Part shown: positions 1-7,024 of the stretch, in pieces
Layout: each line of letters starts with the position of its first letter
How positions within the stretch are numbered: position 1 is the first letter of the stretch
Source: a virus
Lineage: Duplodnaviria; Heunggongvirae; Uroviricota; Caudoviricetes
Strand: one strand, 5' to 3'
Length of the DNA: 7,024 bases
IMG/VR virus record: IMGVR_UViG_2547132272_000021
Coordinates: 1 to 7,024 of that record
Notes under the pieces: generated by a model
What the model saw: only the letters and a program-made list of their open reading frames with translations
Databases searched by the model: none
Told to the model about the DNA's origin: nothing
Program-made: the position numbers and the translations under genes

Positions 1-82
1 CCATACCCACGGATTACGGGTGCTGGTCACTGCCCCTTCCAGCTTAAGCTCTCCGCTGAAATCCTCTCCCGGCGTGTTCCAG
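1..82 (-). pseudogene. Distal part of a host ORF interrupted by the insertion (exported-protein-like)
   Basis: The minus-strand frame is open from 82 to the window edge (...WNTPGEDFSGELKLEGAVTSTRNPWVW) and has no start codon of its own. It joins in frame to the 6981-7024 fragment once 83-6980 and one TCCAG copy are removed. Confidence 0.6.
78..82. repeat. Target-site duplication, left copy (TCCAG)
   Basis: TCCAG lies immediately outside the TG terminus at 83. An identical 5-mer lies immediately outside the CA terminus at 6980. The match does not extend on either side. A 5-bp duplication is the Mu transposition signature. Confidence 0.85.
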
Positions 83-87
83 TGTGA

Positions 88-109
88 TGGTTCATGATAA
101 ATACGAAAA
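88..109 (+). repeat. MuA-type transposase end-binding site, L1-like
   Basis: TGGTTCATGATAAATACGAAAA matches 18 of the 19 specified positions of TGNTTCAYTNNAARYRCGAAAR. It occupies nt 6-27 from the terminus, which is where I recall Mu L1 lying (TGTAT-TGATTCAC... in Mu, TGTGA-TGGTTCAT... here). Confidence 0.85.
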
Positions 110-215
110 GAATAATCCGGGATTAGGTTAGTAAAGACGGGAATAGATTGGAGTGAAAAATCTTTTGTATCAGCAGTTTGTTAGCGCAAAGATATGTGTT
201 GGTAAAGTTATCCCT

Positions 216-237
216 TCATTTCTGTGAAACACGAAAA
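216..237 (+). repeat. MuA-type end-binding site, L2-like (weaker first half)
   Basis: TCATTTCTGTGAAACACGAAAA matches the AARYRCGAAAR half perfectly, but the TTCAY half is degenerate, giving about 14 of 19 positions. It has the same orientation as L1. Confidence 0.6.
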
Positions 238-256
238 AATGAAAGGATTACGTGAT

Positions 257-278
257 TGTTTCACTAAAGAGGCGAAAA
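257..278 (+). repeat. MuA-type end-binding site, L3-like
   Basis: TGTTTCACTAAAGAGGCGAAAA matches 17 of 19 consensus positions and has the same orientation as L1. It starts 41 bp after the L2-like site, which resembles the L2-L3 spacing I recall for Mu attL. Confidence 0.75.
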
Positions 279-393
279 GATGGTTGATTGTATAAAGTCT
301 TCAAATATGTTCAAAACCGCTTCAATACTGCATTTGAAGCTGGTTTAAGGTGGGGCATAGGTGTCTGATAACAGAATTTACTATAAACTTTGT

Positions 394-403
394 TGATGCA
401 TCA
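394..403. promoter_or_regulatory. Perfect 10-bp palindrome TGATGCATCA (candidate operator)
   Basis: The sequence is self-complementary. It shares the TGCAT core with the 476-493 palindrome and with 505-509. Confidence 0.35.
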
Positions 404-426
404 TGAATTTAAATGTTTTTATTTAA

Positions 427-439
427 AATCAATGCGTTA
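427..439 (+). promoter_or_regulatory. IHF consensus match (WATCAANNNNTTR)
   Basis: AATCAATGCGTTA fits every specified position. It is preceded by an A/T-rich tract (405-426) and lies between the two TGCAT palindromes. Confidence 0.45.
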
Positions 440-475
440 GTGAATATTACATGATACATAGGTGTAAAGTAGCGC

Positions 476-493
476 ATTGCATATCTATGCAAT
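476..493. promoter_or_regulatory. Inverted repeat ATTGCATA-tc-TATGCAAT (candidate operator)
   Basis: It has 8-bp perfect arms and a 2-bp spacer. It lies about 25 bp upstream of the candidate promoter. Confidence 0.4.
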
Positions 494-516
494 ATGTGTC
501 GGATGTGCATAAACAC

Positions 517-545
517 TTGCCAACCAATTTTATTGTTGATAACTT
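517..545 (+). promoter_or_regulatory. Candidate sigma70 promoter of the immunity operon
   Basis: TTGCCA (517-522), a 17-bp spacer and TAACTT (540-545). Alternatives are TTGATA (536-541), 16 bp, GATAAA (558-563), or the TATAAA at 545-550. The choice between them is ambiguous. Confidence 0.35.
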
Positions 546-552
546 ATAAAAG

Positions 553-571
553 CACTCGATAAAGTCGAGTG
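553..571 (+). other. Stem-loop CACTCGA-taaag-TCGAGTG at or near the predicted 5' end of the immunity transcript
   Basis: It has a 7-bp perfect stem and a 5-nt loop, with no U-tract after it. It could be a 5' stabiliser hairpin or a palindromic operator overlapping the alternative -10. Confidence 0.3.
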
Positions 572-685
572 TCGGGCGTAGGAACCCGTGTAAGCACATG
601 GCGACACAAGACGCGCCAAGCGTCTTTTTTATTGTCGTAATATCAGCGCACCTGCATTCAGTGGCTTATGGTGCACCGTATCTAT

Positions 686-761
686 GGTGGCGCTGGTGGG
701 GCAGTCGAAAGGCTGGCCGGTTTCCTTGTGCGCCGGTATTCCTACCCCCGCCAGCGTCACC
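686..761 (+). ncRNA. P1 C4 / P4 CI-type immunity antisense RNA (about 76 nt)
   Basis: A 16-bp closing stem pairs 686-701 with 746-761 (14 Watson-Crick plus 2 G.U pairs). An inner hairpin pairs 717-720 with 733-736. Its 12-nt loop (721-732, TTTCCTTGTGCG) is complementary to 805-816 across the icd-like Shine-Dalgarno sequence. The single-stranded TTCCTAC (739-745) is complementary to GTAGGAA at 775-781 and 578-584. The size and position upstream of an Icd-like gene match the P1 C4 (77 nt) and P4 CI RNAs. Confidence 0.7.
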
Positions 762-774
762 GCCCCTTATGAGT

Positions 775-816
775 GTAGGAACTCAGGCGGTGACTCCTTA
801 AATTTGCACGAGGAGG
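775..816 (+). promoter_or_regulatory. Antisense-RNA target boxes (a2-like 775-781, b2-like 805-816) covering the icd-like RBS
   Basis: TGCACGAGGAGG (805-816) pairs with the RNA loop 721-732 through 8 Watson-Crick and 4 G.U pairs, and it contains the GAGGAGG SD (810-816). GTAGGAAC is repeated at 578-585, which is the a1-like copy. Confidence 0.6.
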
Positions 817-823
817 CTGCCAA

Positions 824-1021
824 ATGGCTACGACCCCAACCACTTTACGCTCTGAATTTACCTTTCATTTTCTGGCTGTTCGCCGTTCCGATCTGAACGA
901 CCGCCCACACCGCGAATCTATTAACGCACCTGATGAAGCAACTGCCCGTCGTATGCTGGCACGTGATTTTGTGTTGGTGTTTGCTGCCTGCATCCCTGCT
1001 AAAGGGGGTAAACATGAATAA
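824..1021 (+). CDS. icd: Host cell division inhibitor Icd-like protein (65 aa)
   Basis: The motif F.FLAVRRSDL..PH....A.DEA.ARRMLARDFVLVFAA is characteristic of Icd-like proteins of P1 and P4-type elements. A strong SD (GAGGAGG) lies 7 nt upstream of the ATG. Confidence 0.8.
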   Translation: MATTPTTLRSEFTFHFLAVRRSDLNDRPHRESINAPDEATARRMLARDFVLVFAACIPAKGGKHE

Positions 1022-1418
1022 TGTTGTCAAGTTTCCGGTGCGGAATAATAAAAAAGTTGCGAAATCGAGAGAAGATATTGCTGTAAATCTGTTTAAAGAT
1101 ATTGTTGCTGCTTTATCAAAACAGGCGCGTGACTATATTAATGATGGCGTTACCGGGATCAATGGATGCCTAGATGGTAATGGCGGATATGAAACCTTTC
1201 TATCCTCTTTGTTGCTTTATATTCGTGGCATTGACTCAAAAATTGGCCTGTTTAGTATGTCTCTTGATTCAATACATCCAATACTACATGATGCATGCAA
1301 TGACTTAACGAAAGTTATTTCCCTGACGGAGCGTTTTATTGAAAGTAGAGGCGTAATCGCAGAGGCGGCAAATGGAAAACTTACAGAAGAACAAACGCGG
1401 CAGACTTTCAAAAATTGA
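1014..1418 (+). CDS. Hypothetical protein (134 aa) in the ant/eps position of the immunity operon
   Basis: The ATG at 1014 is preceded by GGGGG (1004-1008) and overlaps the icd-like stop (ATGAATAA), which suggests translational coupling. I recognise no family for this protein. Confidence 0.6.
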   Translation: MNNVVKFPVRNNKKVAKSREDIAVNLFKDIVAALSKQARDYINDGVTGINGCLDGNGGYETFLSSLLLYIRGIDSKIGLFSMSLDSIHPILHDACNDLTKVISLTERFIESRGVIAEAANGKLTEEQTRQTFKN

Positions 1419-1734
1419 ATTGCTGCCTGAAAAGATAAAAAGGAAGCTTGATAAAATGCTTATCTCACGTAAGTATTCTCAGGCTGAAATTCTAAATATC
1501 ATAGATCAGGATATAGTAATAGCAGGGTGTTCAGAACTGGTCATATCCAAAACCGGATTGAACAGATATGCGATTAGTTTAATCAATGCTGTTTCGGTAG
1601 CCAAGAAGCATGGAGAAGTGTCTCGCCGTTATAAGCATGCCGAACTACACAGGAGACTTGATAAACTTGAATCAAAGATAGACAGATTAGGGACCAGACT
1701 TGAACGAGTGTTAGAGCTTCTCGAAAAACATTAA
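1372..1734 (+). CDS. Mu gp27 / DUF3486-like small-terminase-like DNA-binding protein (120 aa)
   Basis: The N-terminus KRGRLSKIELLPEKIKRKLDKML...SQAEIL...ISKTGLNRYA fits the R.SK+D.LP.E+R..+D..L......+..EI......+S+S.L.RY pattern of Mu-like gp27 proteins, followed by a coiled-coil C-terminus. An SD (GAGG) lies 6 nt upstream of the ATG. Confidence 0.6.
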   Translation: MENLQKNKRGRLSKIELLPEKIKRKLDKMLISRKYSQAEILNIIDQDIVIAGCSELVISKTGLNRYAISLINAVSVAKKHGEVSRRYKHAELHRRLDKLESKIDRLGTRLERVLELLEKH

Positions 1735-1741
1735 CTATCCC

Positions 1742-1767
1742 AAAGCCGCCCCGTGCGGCTTTTTTAT
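1742..1767 (+). terminator. Rho-independent terminator ending the immunity/terS-like operon
   Basis: AAAGCCGC-cccgt-GCGGCTTT gives an 8-bp stem that runs into a T6 tract, 8 nt after the stop codon. Confidence 0.85.
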
Positions 1768-1935
1768 TGTTTGGCACTCGCTGTACATATCAGCGCATAT
1801 TTCATGGAAAACGGTAAATCTATCTTCCCTAAAAATCCCGAGTAATCTCACAGCATCCAGAGCAAACGGAGATGGTTCTTTTTTGAAAAAATTATGTTTT
1901 ATCACAATCGGGGATAAACTTATTTTTGATTCCCA

Positions 1936-1970
1936 TATCCGCAATAATCGTTATCGTAACATTGCGGATA
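1936..1970. promoter_or_regulatory. 10-bp perfect inverted repeat TATCCGCAAT-N15-ATTGCGGATA (candidate regulator-binding dyad)
   Basis: It sits in the 287-bp non-coding gap (1768-2054) upstream of the Mor-like genes. It is interdigitated with CGTTATC (1949-1955) / GATAACG (1967-1973), and a tandem ATCGCGC-ATCGCGC lies at 1998-2011. Confidence 0.4.
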
Positions 1971-2054
1971 ACGTTAAGTTTGCTGCAAGCATTGGCTATC
2001 GCGCATCGCGCTCAAATGTACACAGGTATATGCAAAAGCTTAAGCGAGAAGATT

Positions 2055-2783
2055 ATGGCTAAACAAACCTTTAAAAATCTCATGTTAACGCCGCCACACA
2101 ATGATATTACAGCGATAAATAAATTCATTGTTTCTTCATGCTTTTCTCGTGATATCTGTGATGTTATGTCTTATATCGGTAAAATGGGATATGCATGTAA
2201 TTATAATGAAGTCAGTGAGCATGTGAAATTGATTGAAAAACAATTCCACGCAGTAAAACATGAACAGAGAGGCGAGTGTGAAATTGATGTTTTTTGTAAT
2301 GTCGCAGGCACCGCTCTCTTTAATGAATTTATATCTGTTTGCGGGAAACAGACGTTCTATCTTGATGCAATGAAATTTGAACCGGATTTTTTTAGTGGTG
2401 GCCCGGTTAAGCATATCCGCAAAACTGCTATTATCGCTTTATTGAGAAATGAAACAAAGATTCTTCCAGAAAGTGTGACCATGATTATGGGCGCTATTGA
2501 GGCGGCATTAAAAAAAATTGGAGTAGACCCACAAGAAGAAGTAAACAGCACGACAAAAATATTCATTGCAACAAAGGCATTTCTGGAAGTTGTAGGTGGA
2601 ATTCAGTTTTATTTACCTAAGGCCGACTCACTTAGTAGAATAATGAAAAAAGCAAATATATATGCAGATAGTTATGTTATGTCTCCTGCTGAACTAGCTA
2701 TTAAATATGGGGAGTCTGGTAAATCGATATACACAACAATAAAACATGTAGGAGCGGTTATTGGTAATCATGAGCAAAGTTAA
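2055..2783 (+). CDS. Mor/C-family transcriptional activator paralog with a roughly 130-aa N-terminal extension (242 aa; start uncertain, alternatively 2016)
   Basis: The C-terminal ~110 aa (LKKIGVDPQEE...VVGGIQFYLPKADSLSRIMKKANIY...MSPAELAIKYGESGKSIYTTIKH) aligns with Mu Mor as I recall it (LSRLGVDPAHS...LGGGQVYIPRGQALDSLIRDLRIW...VSELTTRYGVTFNTVYKAIRR). Confidence 0.65.
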   Translation: MAKQTFKNLMLTPPHNDITAINKFIVSSCFSRDICDVMSYIGKMGYACNYNEVSEHVKLIEKQFHAVKHEQRGECEIDVFCNVAGTALFNEFISVCGKQTFYLDAMKFEPDFFSGGPVKHIRKTAIIALLRNETKILPESVTMIMGAIEAALKKIGVDPQEEVNSTTKIFIATKAFLEVVGGIQFYLPKADSLSRIMKKANIYADSYVMSPAELAIKYGESGKSIYTTIKHVGAVIGNHEQS

Positions 2784-3192
2784 CATAAATAATGCACACA
2801 TATTACAAACAGGTCTGAGCCTCGGTATTGATGTAATGAGAAGTAATCTTCCTGAAGAGTTAAAACTTGTAGAACGTGCAGTTATTGAATCATGTAATGA
2901 TATTGGCTTAAATCCAGAGCATGAAATTAATGGTTTATCATTTATTGGTCGGGTCATATTAAAAATAATGGAACTACAAACCGGATGTAGTTTCATACCT
3001 GAGTATGCGATTGATTCATCCAGAATTATTTTTATTTCTAAAGTTGCTGCATATGCAGAAAAATTTGGAGCAGATAAAGCAGCCAAAGCCTACTCCATTA
3101 CAGTAGATCAGGTTACGGAAATGATGAATGAAGCAAGTATGTTTGTTTCCCAATTTGATGATTTTGGTATAGACAAGGAGAAAAGCCACTGA
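2770..3192 (+). CDS. Second Mor/C-family activator paralog (140 aa)
   Basis: LPEELKLVERAVIESCNDIGLNPEHEIN parallels LPESVTMIMGAIEAALKKIGVDPQEEVN of the upstream protein. G-C-S-F-IPE corresponds to the GG.Q.YIP motif, and the C-terminal AKAYSITVDQVTEMM is HTH-like. The gene overlaps the upstream gene by 14 nt. Confidence 0.5.
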   Translation: MSKVNINNAHILQTGLSLGIDVMRSNLPEELKLVERAVIESCNDIGLNPEHEINGLSFIGRVILKIMELQTGCSFIPEYAIDSSRIIFISKVAAYAEKFGADKAAKAYSITVDQVTEMMNEASMFVSQFDDFGIDKEKSH

Positions 3193-3246
3193 AACACGCT
3201 GTGATGTTGTTTTGTCTTATCGGCGGTGTTCTGGGTGCCCTGCACC

Positions 3247-3290
3247 TTTTTGAAGGTGCTACGGTGTTTTTGAAGGGGTTTTGAAGGGGG
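3247..3290 (+). repeat. Three direct TTTTGAAGG(G) repeats in the gap upstream of the gpI-like gene (candidate activator-dependent late promoter region)
   Basis: The copies are TTTTTGAAGG at 3247-3256, TTTTTGAAGGGG at 3267-3278 and TTTTGAAGGGGG at 3279-3290, with a degenerate TTTTGCA at 3291. The first copy lies inside the hairpin GCACCTT-tttg-AAGGTGC (3242-3259). I could not find a convincing sigma70 -35/-10 pair. Confidence 0.4.
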
Positions 3291-3300
3291 TTTTGCATCC

Positions 3301-4140
3301 ATGACAGAGGAACTAATGAATATAATCGCTTTATGCACTGATTTATCGGGTGATAAGACTCCTCCGGAATGGGTTGAGTTACTGCCAGCAGGACCGGAAA
3401 TTGAAGGGCGTGACGGAAGGAGCTGGACACTTAAAGATCCACAAAGCATTAAACAGGCGTTTTCGTGTCGCGGAATGTCACTTGTGGTCGATTATGAACA
3501 CTCTACAGAAGTGATTGCACCAAAAGGTGGCGAGGCTCCTGCCGCCGGATGGATTAATGACGTTGCTGTCCGTAATGATGGTTCTGTATGGGGAAGAGTT
3601 GAATGGACTCCACGGGCAATGAATTCCATTACATCCCGTGAATACCGATACCTTTCACCAGCGTTCCGTCATTCTCAGGATGGTGAAATACTGGAACTCG
3701 TTAGCGTGGCGTTAACGAATAAACCAAATCTGAAACTTACTGCGCTGAATACTCAGCAGACACTTAGCAAAATCGCACTGGCACTTAATATGGAGGAAGT
3801 TAATTCACTTGAAGAAGTGCTGACAGCGTTAAATAAAAGACAAGCTGAACAACATAGTCAGATTGTAAATGAATATATCGAAAAAGCTGTTTTCTGTCCG
3901 GCCCAGCGGAATATTCTTCTGTCCATGTGTTCAAGTGTTGGAGAAAATGCATTCAGGAAGTTTGCTGATATGCAGGAAAAATCGACGAGTAATTTTTTAC
4001 ACTTTGCTAGGCCTGTAAGTGTAAAAGGTAAAGAACCCCCGAGAACGCTTACTGAATCGCAACTGGCTGTTTGCCGCATTACAGGTGTAAGCGAAGAAGA
4101 CTATTTGATAGCTTTAGGAAAAGAAAATGAAAGATATTAA
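3301..4140 (+). CDS. Mu gpI-like prohead protease / scaffold (279 aa)
   Basis: PEWVELLPAGPEIEGRDGRSW...DYEHS...AGWI...VEWT..A...I....YRYLSPAF... is the Mu-like prophage I protein signature. The C-terminal third is helical and charged, which is scaffold-like. Confidence 0.85.
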   Translation: MTEELMNIIALCTDLSGDKTPPEWVELLPAGPEIEGRDGRSWTLKDPQSIKQAFSCRGMSLVVDYEHSTEVIAPKGGEAPAAGWINDVAVRNDGSVWGRVEWTPRAMNSITSREYRYLSPAFRHSQDGEILELVSVALTNKPNLKLTALNTQQTLSKIALALNMEEVNSLEEVLTALNKRQAEQHSQIVNEYIEKAVFCPAQRNILLSMCSSVGENAFRKFADMQEKSTSNFLHFARPVSVKGKEPPRTLTESQLAVCRITGVSEEDYLIALGKENERY

Positions 4141-5023
4141 TTGTGTAATTGCTGATGCTACTATCGCTTTTAACGCCAAGTTTGAATCAGGAAAAAAAGC
4201 CTACAATCCTGTACATCCAACGATTGCTTCAGAAGTAACGTCTTCATCGGCAGTTAGTGCTTATGGCTTCCTCGAAGATTTCCCGGAAATCAAAGAGTGG
4301 TTAAACGACCGACAGTTAAAATCACTGTCAACCCGTGATTATTTTCTGAAAAATAAAACGTTTGAAAGCAGCATTCAAATTAAACGTGAGGATTTTGAAG
4401 ATAATGATTATGGTAAGTATTCAATGGTTTTTGAACAGTACGGGCGCAAAGCGGCTGCATTCCCTGATAAGTTACTGTTTGAAGCTATGAAGAAAGGGCA
4501 CTTATCAGAAGGAATTGATGGGCATAACTTCTTTGCTACTGACCATCCTAATGGTGAAGGCGTTTATTCAAACCTCTATGGAAGCAATCCAGCAAAAAAT
4601 GCAGATGCAACGCCGTTATGGTACTTATTTGATGGTAGTCAGGGATTGAAACCTTTTATTTATCAGGTTCGTCGTCCAATGGCTGTAACTTCTGTTACTG
4701 ATTCCGGCGCTACCGATGTGTTTCTGAATAATCGTTTTCTGTTTGGTGTTGATGGGCGTCTTAATGTTGGATATGCAATGTGGCAATGCGCAGCGGCATC
4801 ATGGGATACGCTGAATGAAACCACATTTAATGAAGTGTACGACGGGATGTTATCCGTTAAGGGAAGTAGCGGTGAACCATTGGGAATCGTGCCTACTGTT
4901 ATTGTAGTCCCCGTATCGTTAAGAGCCGCAGCGGAAAAATTGCTGTTACGTCAGTATCTGGATAACGGGGAAGACAATCCAAATTATAAACGCGTGGAAA
5001 TTATTGTTTCACCATTTATTTGA
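4127..5023 (+). CDS. Mu gpT-like major capsid protein (298 aa)
   Basis: It is colinear with Mu T as I recall it, over segments such as YGFLEDFPEIKEWLNDRQ, FESSIQIKREDFEDN, DGHNFFATDHP, LKPFIYQ, NVGYAMWQ, VVPVSLR and NGEDNPNY. An AGGA SD lies 7 nt upstream, and the gene overlaps the gpI-like gene by 14 nt. Confidence 0.9.
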   Translation: MKDINCVIADATIAFNAKFESGKKAYNPVHPTIASEVTSSSAVSAYGFLEDFPEIKEWLNDRQLKSLSTRDYFLKNKTFESSIQIKREDFEDNDYGKYSMVFEQYGRKAAAFPDKLLFEAMKKGHLSEGIDGHNFFATDHPNGEGVYSNLYGSNPAKNADATPLWYLFDGSQGLKPFIYQVRRPMAVTSVTDSGATDVFLNNRFLFGVDGRLNVGYAMWQCAAASWDTLNETTFNEVYDGMLSVKGSSGEPLGIVPTVIVVPVSLRAAAEKLLLRQYLDNGEDNPNYKRVEIIVSPFI

Positions 5024-5029
5024 TAATTC

Positions 5030-5054
5030 GGAGGGGATTTCCCCTCCTGTTTTT
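5030..5054 (+). terminator. Rho-independent terminator/attenuator directly after the capsid gene
   Basis: GGAGGGG-attt-CCCCTCC gives a 7-bp GC-rich stem followed by TGTTTTT, 6 nt after the capsid stop codon. Confidence 0.75.
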
Positions 5055-5066
5055 ATGGGGAATATA

Positions 5067-6854
5067 ATGAGTAATAAGTTAAGCACGGAAATACTGATAA
5101 ATCTTACGGGAAATCTTACCGCTAAAGCACGACAGTACGGCGCAAATATGTCGCAGTTCGCCCGTAACCATCAGAAGGCAATGCGACTGGTCAAGGCCAC
5201 AACTGAATCCGCCACGCGTGGCCTTGATATGCTGGGTAATCGTTACACAGCGATGATTGCAGGTTTTGCAGGTAGCGCCATGATGCGTGAGTTTGCACAG
5301 GTTGATCGCCGGATGACCCGTATTGGTATTGCCGCAGAAAAGACGCGCGACGAAATGGCACAGATGCTGAATGGTATTCAGGACACCGCCATCAAATTTA
5401 AGGTTGATGACAGTGAACTGATAAGCGCGGTGGAAAAAGTTGGCACAATAACAGGCGAGATTGAGTTTGGCATCAAGAATAAGGATGTTATGGCGGCCTC
5501 CATCGCGGCTTCAGGAAGTGAAGGCGAGTTCATTGGCTCGCTGTTTTCCCTGTTTACGAAGTTTGGCATTAAGAATGAAGACGACTCACTGAAGGCCATG
5601 GACACCCTGAACCTGCTGGGGAAGGAAGGTGCCTATGAATTGAAAGACTTTGCAGAAAAATCCACCCGCGGGATGTCGCTGTATGCCGCTGCAGGTGGAC
5701 GGGGCGTAAAGGGTGTCAAGGAGTTTGGTGTTGTAATGGAATCTGCTGTGGATGCCACCGGGAACCGTGATACAGCAGCCACAACGGTGGAAAATTTCAT
5801 AAAAGATTTGCAGAACCCGAAAGTCGTCAAAACGCTTAAGCATAATGGCATTAACGTATTCGATAGCGAAGGCCATATGCGTTCACTGCCCGTTCTTCTT
5901 CAGGAGATTGCCACCCGCTCGGGAAGCAAAGGCTCGGAAATACAATCCAAACGACTGGATGAAGCCGGATTTCTTGATGACGCAAAAATGTTAATCAAAT
6001 CGGTAACGTCCGGTAAAGGCGCAGAAAACCTGCAACGCTATATGAAAGTCGTCGGTGATGGAAAAGGCATCATGAAGGATGCCGCATATGCCGCACAGGA
6101 CTTTACGTCTTCCATGCAGGCGCTGGAAACCAGCTGGAAAAAATTCTCTCATAACCAACTGGCAAAACCTGTTCAGGAACTGGCTGATGCCATTAACAGT
6201 GTCGACCAGAACACTGTCCAGAACTGGCTACAGGTTGCCAAATACATGGCGATTGCTGTGGGCGGCATTATCGCCGTGCGTAAGACGTACAAGCTCGGTA
6301 AAACCATCCACGACATCATGAATCCCAAAGAGAAAGGCAAAGGGATACCCGGCAGTATTACGGATGTTTTCGGTTCTGGCGTGATGCCAGTGTATGTGGT
6401 CAATATGGGCAGCGGTGGGATGAATGGTAATACCAGTGGTTTGCCGGATGCGCCGGATTCATCACGCAATCCCCGTGGACCAAAGACGCCAACACTGGTT
6501 ACACCACAAACGGTATCAGGATTTAATCTCCTTGACATGGCGCTATCTGCTTTCCCCAAAAATAAAGAGGAAGCTGACGCGTTAATCGCACGGGTTCAGG
6601 AAAACAACAACCGCCCGACGGTATGGACGGATATTAAGAACTGGTTTAACTCTCTGGAGAAAAAGAACATCGCCGCTCCATCTCCGTGGGATGTCCTGCA
6701 ATCCACACAGAACGCGCCATTCGTACCACAGCAATTGCAGGGAGAAATCCGTGTGGTGGTGGAAGGTGATGCACGCGTGAAAAGCGTCAGAGTGGATCAA
6801 CCTGGCGTCAGACTTAGTGCTCAGGCAGGGGTTACCAGTGTAGAACAAAGTTAA
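5067..6854 (+). CDS. Tail tape-measure-like protein (TP901/PhageMin_Tail-type core; 595 aa)
   Basis: The central region (FAQVDRRMTRIGIAAEKTRDEM...AASIAASGSEGEFIGSLFSLFTKFGI...NLLGKEGAYELKDFA...GINVFDSEGHMRSLPVLLQEIA) looks like tape-measure core repeats. The C-terminal part has a hydrophobic segment (YMAIAVGGIIAV) and a Gly-rich stretch. I chose the ATG at 5067 because GGGGA lies 6 nt upstream, whereas the TTG at 5004 would overlap the capsid gene and the terminator. Confidence 0.7.
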   Translation: MSNKLSTEILINLTGNLTAKARQYGANMSQFARNHQKAMRLVKATTESATRGLDMLGNRYTAMIAGFAGSAMMREFAQVDRRMTRIGIAAEKTRDEMAQMLNGIQDTAIKFKVDDSELISAVEKVGTITGEIEFGIKNKDVMAASIAASGSEGEFIGSLFSLFTKFGIKNEDDSLKAMDTLNLLGKEGAYELKDFAEKSTRGMSLYAAAGGRGVKGVKEFGVVMESAVDATGNRDTAATTVENFIKDLQNPKVVKTLKHNGINVFDSEGHMRSLPVLLQEIATRSGSKGSEIQSKRLDEAGFLDDAKMLIKSVTSGKGAENLQRYMKVVGDGKGIMKDAAYAAQDFTSSMQALETSWKKFSHNQLAKPVQELADAINSVDQNTVQNWLQVAKYMAIAVGGIIAVRKTYKLGKTIHDIMNPKEKGKGIPGSITDVFGSGVMPVYVVNMGSGGMNGNTSGLPDAPDSSRNPRGPKTPTLVTPQTVSGFNLLDMALSAFPKNKEEADALIARVQENNNRPTVWTDIKNWFNSLEKKNIAAPSPWDVLQSTQNAPFVPQQLQGEIRVVVEGDARVKSVRVDQPGVRLSAQAGVTSVEQS

Positions 6855-6856
6855 AT

Positions 6857-6887
6857 ATATGCTGTATATCACAAAATAGCAGCATAT
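6857..6887. repeat. Inverted repeat ATATGCTG-N15-CAGCATAT after the last gene, containing a possible degenerate third MuA-type site
   Basis: It has 8-bp perfect arms. The loop and right arm (6865-6886, TATATCACAAAATAGCAGCATA) share TCACAAAA with the R1/R2-like sites but match only about 10 of 19 consensus positions. The orientation is opposite to R1/R2. Confidence 0.25.
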
Positions 6888-6931
6888 TAATTCAATGCGT
6901 CCGATTTTTTATTCGGTGGTGTTTTGTTTTT

Positions 6932-6953
6932 TTTTCGCGCTTTTTGTGAGATG
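6932..6953 (-). repeat. MuA-type end-binding site, R2-like
   Basis: The minus strand reads CATCTCACAAAAAGCGCGAAAA, about 15 of 19 consensus positions. It directly abuts the R1-like site in the same orientation. The two 22-mers are 20/22 identical. Confidence 0.75.
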
Positions 6954-6975
6954 CTTTCGCGCTTTTTGTGAAACG
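6954..6975 (-). repeat. MuA-type end-binding site, R1-like
   Basis: The minus strand reads CGTTTCACAAAAAGCGCGAAAG, 17 of 19 consensus positions. It occupies nt 6-27 from the CA terminus, exactly mirroring the L1-like site at the other end. Confidence 0.85.
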
Positions 6976-6980
6976 CCTCA

Positions 6981-6985
6981 TCCAG
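6981..6985. repeat. Target-site duplication, right copy (TCCAG)
   Basis: It is identical to 78-82 and directly abuts the CA-3' terminus. Confidence 0.85.
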
Positions 6986-7024
6986 GCCAGTACACAGGAA
7001 GGCAGGAGGCTGGCAGCAAACAGA
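6981..7024 (-). pseudogene. Proximal part of the interrupted host ORF (signal-peptide-like segment)
   Basis: The minus-strand frame reads LFAASLLPSCVLAW. In the present state it runs on into the element end (MRRFTKSAKASHKKREKKTKHHRIKNRTH) and stops at the TGA complementary to 6892-6894. In the reconstructed empty site it continues as NTPGEDFSGELKLEG... Confidence 0.6.

Follow-up and report, generated by a model that had tools for sequence, protein, structure and literature searches.

Why does a 6.9 kb element with no other tail gene spend about a quarter of its length on a tail tape-measure protein (TMP)? The question arises from a 7,024 bp stretch of DNA (the window; positions 1 to 7,024 of IMG/VR virus record IMGVR_UViG_2547132272_000021). 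In it, positions 83-6980 make up a 6,898 bp element that is read here as a non-autonomous, transposase-less, Mu-type transposable satellite. Its last gene, at 5067-6854, is a complete and selectively maintained tail tape-measure gene. With moderate confidence, we favor the explanation that the satellite TMP is a working replacement, built into tails made by a helper Mu-like myophage, and that it frees the satellite from the helper's TMP allele.

The gene is a complete open reading frame (ORF) of 595 amino acids (aa) on the plus strand. It starts with ATG and has GGGG just upstream; the mechanically called ORF begins at TTG 5004, and the ATG is the start used in RefSeq copies and in all relatives. 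A sequence-only reading had earlier termed the product tape-measure-like, which is borne out by Pfam, PHROG and fold matches. Pfam PhageMin_Tail (PF10145) matches at 54.3 bits with a cut-off of 33.2. Of the two profiles then proposed as a check, this one matched and the TP901 core did not, the NCBIfam collection that includes the TP901-core model giving no match. PHROG 973 ('tail length tape measure protein') matches aa 1-594 with E = 1.9e-106. The 603 aa TMP of L003, a complete Mu-like prophage, is 87% identical over its full length, and that of Klebsiella phage Kp4866-3 is 58% identical; a phage database search detected no similarity to Mu gp42. The AlphaFold2 model is all helical, with a block-mean predicted local distance difference test (pLDDT) score mostly of 64-93 across aa 110-340 and lower before. 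Foldseek comparison of the modeled core with BFVD gave 136 viral matches at E <= 1e-3, and the named top ones are all tape-measure or minor tail proteins. Sequence and fold searches of the PDB yielded no match among solved structures. An enzymatic or defense role finds no support: PADLOC gave no match to the TMP, no additional Pfam domain was present, fold matches were to TMPs only and the PDB searches were empty.

A TMP gene typically has the gene for the tail-assembly chaperone on one side and those for the tube initiator and hub on the other; this one instead lies between the capsid gene and the transposon end. Pfam, PHROG and the ORF list reveal no tube, sheath, chaperone or baseplate gene in the window. 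The gene is thus an orphan, as first described, and also the last gene of the element, with its stop at 6854 and the element terminus 126 bp further on at 6980. A distinct composition had been noted as well. The TMP gene is indeed richer in G+C, but at 49.5% (52% at third codon positions) and not at the 58% first estimated; its 60-nucleotide (nt) lines range from 33 to 62%. Values elsewhere are 35.5% for the Mor-like gene, 40.6% for the capsid gene and 40.3% for the element minus the TMP gene. G+C content of the TMP gene exceeds that of the capsid gene in all eight satellites where both were measured, which is consistent with gene flow from G+C-richer helpers.

Compared with TMPs of Mu-like prophages in the same genomes (co-resident helpers), the window TMP is 44-46% identical overall, and the identity is mosaic. 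Five segments, all on the plus strand, are distinguished:

5067-5264, plus strand: TMP N-terminal segment, aa 1-66; common to helper TMPs, with the first 15 nt satellite-specific; 87-90% identical to the co-resident helper TMP.
5265-6140, plus strand: TMP all-alpha core (PhageMin_Tail), aa 67-358; an exchangeable allele, 'class A'; 19-21% identical.
6141-6416, plus strand: TMP hydrophobic region, aa 359-450, with WLQVAKYMAIAVGGIIAV and GSGVMPVYVVNMGSGG; invariant across genera; 85-88% identical.
6417-6734, plus strand: TMP second variable segment, aa 451-556; 42-46% identical.
6735-6854, plus strand: TMP C-terminal segment, aa 557-595, and stop codon; 97% identical at the amino acid level, to the co-resident and to all Escherichia coli helper TMPs.

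The two ends are conserved as protein. Residues 1-66 are 86-91% identical to those of E. coli helper TMPs at the amino acid level and only 78-81% at the nucleotide level. The extreme N-terminus reads MS[NSG][KR]L.TEILIN in all satellites and MATG[SN]RLSTEIMIN in helpers. Relative to co-resident helper TMPs, aa 3-66 show a synonymous divergence (dS) of 1.2-2.0 with a non-synonymous to synonymous ratio (omega) of 0.02-0.05, and aa 557-595 show a dS of 0.65-0.84 with an omega of 0.02-0.03. Overall the termini are 78-88% identical to those of helpers in nucleotides, but 87-100% in amino acids. The heavy synonymous divergence (dS 0.65-2.0), which approaches saturation, combined with an omega of 0.02-0.05, indicates that the matching ends are not recent copies. 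The hydrophobic region, with hydropathy peaks at aa 386-405 and 427-447, is 83-90% identical to that of helpers (omega 0.08-0.14). In Mu the TMP forms a trimer, with its C-terminus seated as a plug in the hub/spike complex (PMC11915804), and only three copies are present per tail (PMC11915804; PMC10884400). Given this location of the Mu C-terminus, the conserved ends suggest that the satellite keeps exactly that part of the TMP which must fit helper components.

The interior is exchanged. The core (aa 67-358) is 82-87% identical to that of helper L003 and 94.7% identical in nucleotides to that of L092, a Mu-like helper contig in IMG/VR, and the latter value indicates recent exchange. By a window-based measure, aa 451-556 are 96% identical to those of the L003 and STEC388 helpers, with 42-46% to the co-resident types UMNF18 and RIVM and 75-77% to a Salmonella satellite (L020). 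Nucleotide homology to helpers is limited to the TMP ORF (5082-6854) and ends exactly at its borders. The satellite capsid and protease are 43% and 34% identical to those of helpers, and satellite capsids form a separate clade. When the segments of nine satellite TMPs were compared with 61 helper TMPs, the nearest relative was a helper TMP in all but three comparisons; in these (the N-terminal segment in the Klebsiella and L127 satellites and, in L026, the second variable segment) another satellite was tied or slightly closer. Helper-like content framed by a satellite-specific start and hairpin indicates that the slot is inherited, while its content is repeatedly renewed from helpers. The mosaic acquisition suggested by the sequence-only reading therefore returns in a stronger form, as a slot conserved across genera whose content has been exchanged with helpers many times over.

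Between E. coli satellite lineages, omega for the TMP gene is 0.05 (5.5 non-synonymous versus 34.5 synonymous changes) and 0.13 (43 versus 86), and in eight E. coli copies the frame is intact with zero indels. These values and the lack of indels show that the protein is under purifying selection.

Helper TMP genes are themselves unusual. The homologues in prophages L003 and L092, which are 81-87% identical, and those in 56 IMG/VR relatives lie in the order tube, chaperone, TMP, N. In 47 genomes the helper tail genes from N to the baseplate are 95-97% identical in nucleotides, whereas the TMP core alleles are only about 40% identical. Four helper prophages (L009, L010, L011 and L003) have at least three alleles of the core (aa 67-358), which are 19-45% identical in amino acids, and their second variable segment (aa 451-556) assorts independently of the core. 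The TMP is a hypervariable cassette in the otherwise 95-97% identical tail modules of these Mu-like prophages. A conserved tail module with divergent TMP cores supports the pattern of a contested, or arms-race, locus. Length is less variable: the satellite TMP has 595 aa, co-resident helper TMPs have 597-618 aa and 56 helper-type TMPs from IMG/VR have 591-679 aa. A change of tail length, one of the roles first envisaged, is not supported by these figures.

The slot is found well beyond E. coli. Elements with a capsid 70-79% identical to that of the window share the order Mor, small ORF, protease, capsid, TMP, end, and occur in Salmonella, Klebsiella variicola, Citrobacter freundii (at three insertion sites) and Yersinia enterocolitica, as well as on several contigs from IMG/VR and from Logan (assemblies of public sequencing runs). 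Their TMPs have 595-651 aa. The distance from TMP stop to right end is 71-126 bp where the end was identified (E. coli, Salmonella, Citrobacter, Yersinia, Logan); in the Klebsiella and IMG/VR elements the TMP gene is also the last, and right ends were not located. The end sequences of relatives differ from those of the window, and as local BLAST with the ends was uninformative, ends were read by eye. Far from being absent from most homologues, the TMP gene is present in every intact relative with a capsid at least 70% identical. Exceptions are one E. coli copy in which it was lost to IS1 and a decaying Salmonella copy in which it is a three-piece pseudogene. A capsid scan of one genome per species revealed only a distant phage-like locus in Vibrio.

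Three relatives have features of their own. On a Logan contig (L024, 7266-8440), beside a Rep3 plasmid gene, the capsid has a 30 aa C-terminal extension; a hairpin and Mu-type right end directly follow the capsid gene, and the element ends about 180 bp past it. In Salmonella Brandenburg (L029, 4857-11757) a near-identical satellite, with a TMP 99.8% identical in amino acids to that of the window and a GTGTG duplication, is inserted in a 553 aa ORF located between the gene for gpU and that for the tail chaperone; this ORF is the tape-measure gene of an unrelated prophage, whose tail is P2-like. With only one such case, chance may be the explanation. A third, in Salmonella enterica (L020, ~4010-10880), has nearly the same backbone; its capsid is identical to the P0001 representative, which in turn is 100% identical to the window capsid. 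Its TMP has 598 aa, and its transposon ends differ (TGTAGAACATCAC... and ...GCGCCGCTCTACA), which suggests that ends and TMP were swapped to suit a different helper.

The ends of the element are those of a Mu-type transposon:

78-82, no strand: left target-site duplication, TCCAG, repeated at 6981-6985.
83-330, plus strand: Mu-type left end, beginning TGTGATGGTTCATGATAAATACGAAAAG, with more CGAAAA-containing repeats at ~225-245 and ~260-285.
6855-6980, plus strand: Mu-type right end, with 17 bp repeats TTTCGCGCTTTTTGTGA at 6933 and 6955 and the terminus ...GAAACGCCTCA.
6981-6985, no strand: right target-site duplication, TCCAG.

The element thus starts TGTGATGG... and ends ...GCCTCA, with TG...CA termini. 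Ends of a Mu-like helper prophage, which has its own 5 bp duplication, are closely similar when compared by eye (left TGTATTGATTCACGATAAGTACGAAAAAAACCGGGAGG, right ...TTTCGCGTTTTTCGTGCGCCGCTTCA); we take these helper ends to be almost identical to those of phage Mu. When the flanks are joined at one TCCAG copy they match an uninterrupted faeI-like fimbrial gene at 99.2% (121/121 nt), which shows that the empty site exists. The flanks, 1-82 and 6986-7024, are the two halves of this gene, a minor fimbrial subunit of the F4/K88 type that is mostly plasmid-borne in E. coli; this satellite copy has therefore disrupted a fimbrial gene. The element is found in eight complete E. coli genomes, with one further copy truncated by IS1, and at least six different insertion sites are represented among seven E. 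coli loci examined. The same end sequence as in the window occurs at five further insertion sites, and one genome has two identical copies. Four of five full copies examined have their own 5 bp duplications. Overall, the duplications seen are TCCAG (window), GCCAG, TCCAC (two different sites) and CTGAG, and relatives have GTGGT (Citrobacter), ACGGA (Yersinia) and GTGTG (Salmonella). A copy between lyx and yiaK (L006, 2502 and 9397) has ATGTG to the left and ACCGG to the right, without a duplication; the mismatch suggests a rearrangement or deletion adjacent to the insertion and later than it.

ORF, Pfam and PHROG analyses of 83-6980 reveal no DDE transposase (A), B ATPase, integrase, replication gene, portal or large terminase. 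As the transposase genes A and B are absent, the element is non-autonomous. Insertion of the tRNA/integrase type was rejected, as the window has neither a tRNA nor an integrase. The idea of a satellite-like element, raised at the outset from the sequence, is supported by the gene content, in the form of a probable Mu-type satellite. Megablast of the whole window against the phage collection gave no match.

All nine element-bearing E. coli genomes carry a Mu-like myophage tail module, compared with 52 of 5426 genomes in the background. These nine represent about three independent lineages, and counted as such the co-occurrence has a chance probability on the order of 1e-6 by rough arithmetic. 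Element-sized contigs (6899, 6470, 6972 and 7255 bp) are present in assemblies; these, and the presence of the element in several genera, hint at packaging and transfer by a helper. Two of the co-resident prophages have visible lesions. In that of UMNF18 (L009, 16648-17301), the head-completion genes and the N-terminal part of the sheath are missing, and there are several frameshifts; in that of STEC388 (L011, 23501-26116), baseplate gene J is interrupted by an insertion of the IS66 family.

How might the TMP gene be expressed? It is the third gene of an apparent late operon:

3247-3291, plus strand: late-promoter-like motif, three TTTGAAGG repeats, upstream of the protease-capsid-TMP operon.
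3316-4140, plus strand: Mu gpI-type head protease/scaffold gene (Pfam Mu-like_Pro, E = 8e-49; PHROG 328), first in the operon.
4127-5023, plus strand: Mu gpT-type major capsid gene (Pfam Mu-like_gpT, E = 6e-89), of the satellite clade.
5030-5056, plus strand: post-capsid hairpin GGAGGGG-ATTT-CCCCTCC and TGTTTTTAT, likely an attenuating terminator ahead of the TMP gene.

The motif at 3247-3291 is identical at 41/45 nt to sequence upstream of the protease gene of a helper prophage. Satellites of other genera have TTTAAACG repeats instead, and these are also present in a Kluyvera helper. The repeats look like mimicry of a late promoter, and the operon may be switched on by the late activator of the helper. 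The terminator that the sequence-only reading placed ahead of the TMP gene is seen as a hairpin, GGAGGGGATTTCCCCTCC, at 5030-5047, with a 7 bp G+C-rich stem followed by the T-run TGTTTTT and a fold energy of -15 kcal/mol. A hairpin is present at the same post-capsid position in all related satellites, with differing stem sequence, and after the capsid gene in three of four helper prophages examined; in the damaged UMNF18 helper no strong hairpin folds between the capsid gene and the truncated sheath gene. The hairpin probably lowers TMP output relative to capsid output.

A mechanism can be proposed on this basis. The transposase of a helper Mu-like myophage would move the satellite, as the ends, the duplications and the co-occurrence with such prophages suggest. 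During late development of the helper, the helper-like late promoter would drive the protease, the capsid and, by read-through of the hairpin, the TMP. The satellite TMP shares with the helper its N-terminus, hydrophobic middle and C-terminal plug, its core being an allele of its own drawn from the helper-phage pool. Retention of helper-like TMP ends implies that the satellite TMP can use the helper chaperone, tube initiator, hub and tube, and give tails of normal length. Particles released from the cell would then have tails formed on the satellite TMP, which would make the satellite independent of the TMP allele of whichever helper it meets. The replacement of the helper TMP proposed from sequence alone is thus plausible and now favored, since the ends are conserved at the amino acid level despite synonymous divergence; the change in tail length that was attached to it is not supported. 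A role in protecting DNA ends had been suggested as well. In Mu this is done by protein N, and the gene for protein N is absent from the satellite.

What would a satellite gain from its own TMP? Its adaptive purpose may be sought in conflicts among phages. Since a satellite must assemble in, and inject into, cells full of related prophages, its own TMP allele would pay. The most likely benefit, though a speculative one, would be escape from TMP-directed exclusion or assembly-blocking systems. Tab, a prophage protein of Mu-like Pseudomonas phages, recognizes the TMP and blocks tail assembly, and a TMP swap restores plating (PMC10884400). Swapping of TMPs between Mu-like phages gives viable particles with altered sensitivity to this TMP-targeting blocker (PMC10884400). 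TMP-dependent injection exclusion in HK97 is also cited there. A more far-reaching proposal is offered tentatively and is the less likely to hold: that this is the first phage-satellite family to be a non-autonomous Mu-type transposon re-keying the helper tail, with a TMP allele, refreshed time and again from the helper gene pool, by which it assembles and injects where the helper TMP is blocked by TMP-directed exclusion or inhibitors of tail assembly, including in helper lysogens, the very cells that it has to enter.

Several points weigh against a replacement TMP. Entry of the TMP into tails is a prediction only. The satellite has no TMP chaperone, and that of the helper must accept a core only 19-21% identical to its own. 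If satellite and helper TMPs formed mixed trimers, these could do harm instead of being of use. The mismatch between satellite and helper alleles is drawn from no more than two or three independent lineages and does not reach statistical significance, and the co-resident prophages of UMNF18 and STEC388 look damaged and may not be the real helpers. No gene for TMP-directed exclusion or blocking turned up in helpers, where no search was aimed at such genes. Lastly, the satellite lifestyle is possible without a TMP, as the most divergent relative, L024, whose capsid is 61% identical, lacks one.

Other explanations were weighed. The satellite TMP might simply add to tail supply, an extra dose starting more helper tails for the more numerous small satellite heads, with the core allele irrelevant. 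The location of the gene directly after the capsid gene in a late operon with a helper-like promoter fits this, as do the helper-compatible termini and the fact that the TMP is the lowest-copy initiating component, at three per tail (PMC11915804; PMC10884400). However, hub, initiator and chaperone would become limiting equally fast and the satellite has none of them, the hairpin ahead of the gene would reduce its expression, and neither the use of a quarter of a 6.9 kb genome nor the recurrent exchange of core alleles is explained; this role is considered unlikely. Satellites commonly interfere with their helpers, and a TMP with conserved docking ends and a core that has only 19-21% identity with the co-resident helper's might be a weapon that co-assembles with the helper TMP or outcompetes it and so poisons tail assembly, or that sequesters the chaperone, cutting helper yield. 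The TMP is moreover a proven target in conflicts between Mu-like phages (PMC10884400). Yet the satellite itself depends on these tails for transfer and has no other kind to turn to, its alleles are of the ordinary kind seen in helpers and are clearly tail-competent in real phages (87% overall to L003, 94.7% in core nucleotides to L092), and its capsid and protease already supply interference with head assembly. Interference through the TMP is accordingly quite unlikely.

The conservation data bear on two further possibilities. The gene may have no function, being either a remnant of a deletion or recombination that formed a mini-Mu or a hitch-hiker at the right end. Loss of the intervening genes from a Mu-like genome would leave the order gp27-like, Mor, protease, capsid, TMP, the G+C content is distinct, and the TMP is absent from one relative, a pseudogene in another and lost to IS1 in one E. 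coli copy. But purifying selection is evident both between satellite lineages and against helpers, the frame is intact without indels in the eight E. coli copies, the slot has been retained across at least five genera while capsid identity fell to 70%, and helper homology ends exactly at the ORF borders (5082-6854). A remnant is the worst fit to the data on conservation and selection, and must be regarded as improbable. Alternatively, the TMP gene may serve as a patch of homology for recombination with helpers, by which ends are renewed and modules exchanged. Exchange with helpers is indeed frequent, and the Salmonella satellite L020 combines the same backbone with different ends and a partly different TMP; nonetheless, selection is on the protein and not on the nucleotides (termini 78-88% identical in nucleotides, 87-100% in amino acids). 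In addition, about 10 kb separate the TMP gene of helpers from their right end, and a crossover within this gene would therefore not bring a helper end alongside it. We see very little probability in this role. A working replacement TMP, built into helper-made tails, thus stays the favored explanation.

Other genes of the element deserve mention. The window capsid is 70-79% identical to those of related satellites. Positions 552-1021 hold an immunity-type module with an isrK-like small RNA (552-630, 59 bits), a C4 antisense RNA (680-767, 77 bits), a weak a1/b1 target match (539-592) and an icd-like gene (824-1021); P1/P7 and P4-like elements have a similar arrangement. The module may serve as a switch for the satellite itself, or it may act on the helper as an anti-repressor control. 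At the position of the P1 antirepressor gene is a gene for a hypothetical protein of 134 aa (1014-1418) without a family match; it is by a wide margin the most divergent gene between satellite lineages (85.9% identity in nucleotides, omega 0.49). The 120 aa protein encoded at 1372-1734 corresponds to no more than the first 64 residues of the small-terminase-like protein Mu gp27 (Pfam E = 1.9e-9; PHROG 426), and could redirect packaging towards the satellite. Its gene has an omega of about 1.1 (12 non-synonymous versus 3 synonymous changes) when the window is compared with UMNF18. The Mor-like activator (2052-2783) has 243 aa, compared with 133-149 aa for helper Mor proteins; its Mor domain is confined to aa 139-242, and a 130 aa N-terminal extension is without a match.

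To our knowledge, no known satellite family encodes a tape measure, and none with a tape measure of its own was found in the literature searched. Likewise, no description of satellites of Mu or other transposable phages was found, in a search whose coverage was incomplete, so that a prior description is possible. The satellites described so far seize heads and packaging and depend on the helper for tails; one that has a TMP points to the TMP as a contested component, which fits the recently described TMP-targeting defenses of Mu-like phages and the hypervariable helper TMP core. The element also extends satellites to transposable phages, with Mu-type copying, random disruption of host genes and exchange of a structural gene with helpers. 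It is, moreover, a compact system found naturally in E. coli and Salmonella in which to study the function of the TMP core, the matching of TMP, chaperone and hub, and the entry of satellites into helper-holding cells.

Comparison with known systems brings out both what is shared and what is new. The TMPs of Mu-like myophages (Mu gp42 and its counterparts in E. coli, Kluyvera and Klebsiella prophages) belong to the same family, with the same domain plan and length range. In these phages the gene lies between those of the tail chaperone and tube-initiator N, whereas the satellite has it after the capsid gene and directly at the transposon end, and its first 15 nt and upstream hairpin are satellite-specific. 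Tab of Pseudomonas phage JBD26 (PMC10884400), and HK97 gp15 exclusion, cited in that paper, show that the TMP allele of a Mu-like or lambdoid phage sets its sensitivity to assembly blockers or to injection exclusion, and that a TMP swap is tolerated; this is the selective reason proposed here for a satellite allele. Tab and gp15 are inhibitors aimed at the TMP; the satellite instead carries a TMP, and no inhibitor was identified in satellite or helpers. Laboratory mini-Mu consists of two Mu ends without A and B, is mobilized and packaged in trans by Mu, and inserts nearly at random with 5 bp duplications. The element likewise has two Mu-type ends without A and B, 5 bp duplications and varied sites. 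Unlike mini-Mu, it is natural and conserved and has its own isrK/C4 RNA and icd, Mor-like, gp27-like, protease, capsid and TMP genes. Capsid-forming phage-inducible chromosomal islands (cfPICIs) use an integrase at fixed sites, have their own replication and a full head and packaging module, and are not known to have a tail component. Compared with these and with other such islands (PICIs), the element is without integrase, replication gene, portal or large terminase, is found at variable sites and has one tail component. Nevertheless, cfPICIs, with their own capsid-building proteins and use of helper tails, are the systems that come closest in function to the whole element (bioRxiv 10.1101/2022.09.08.507074).

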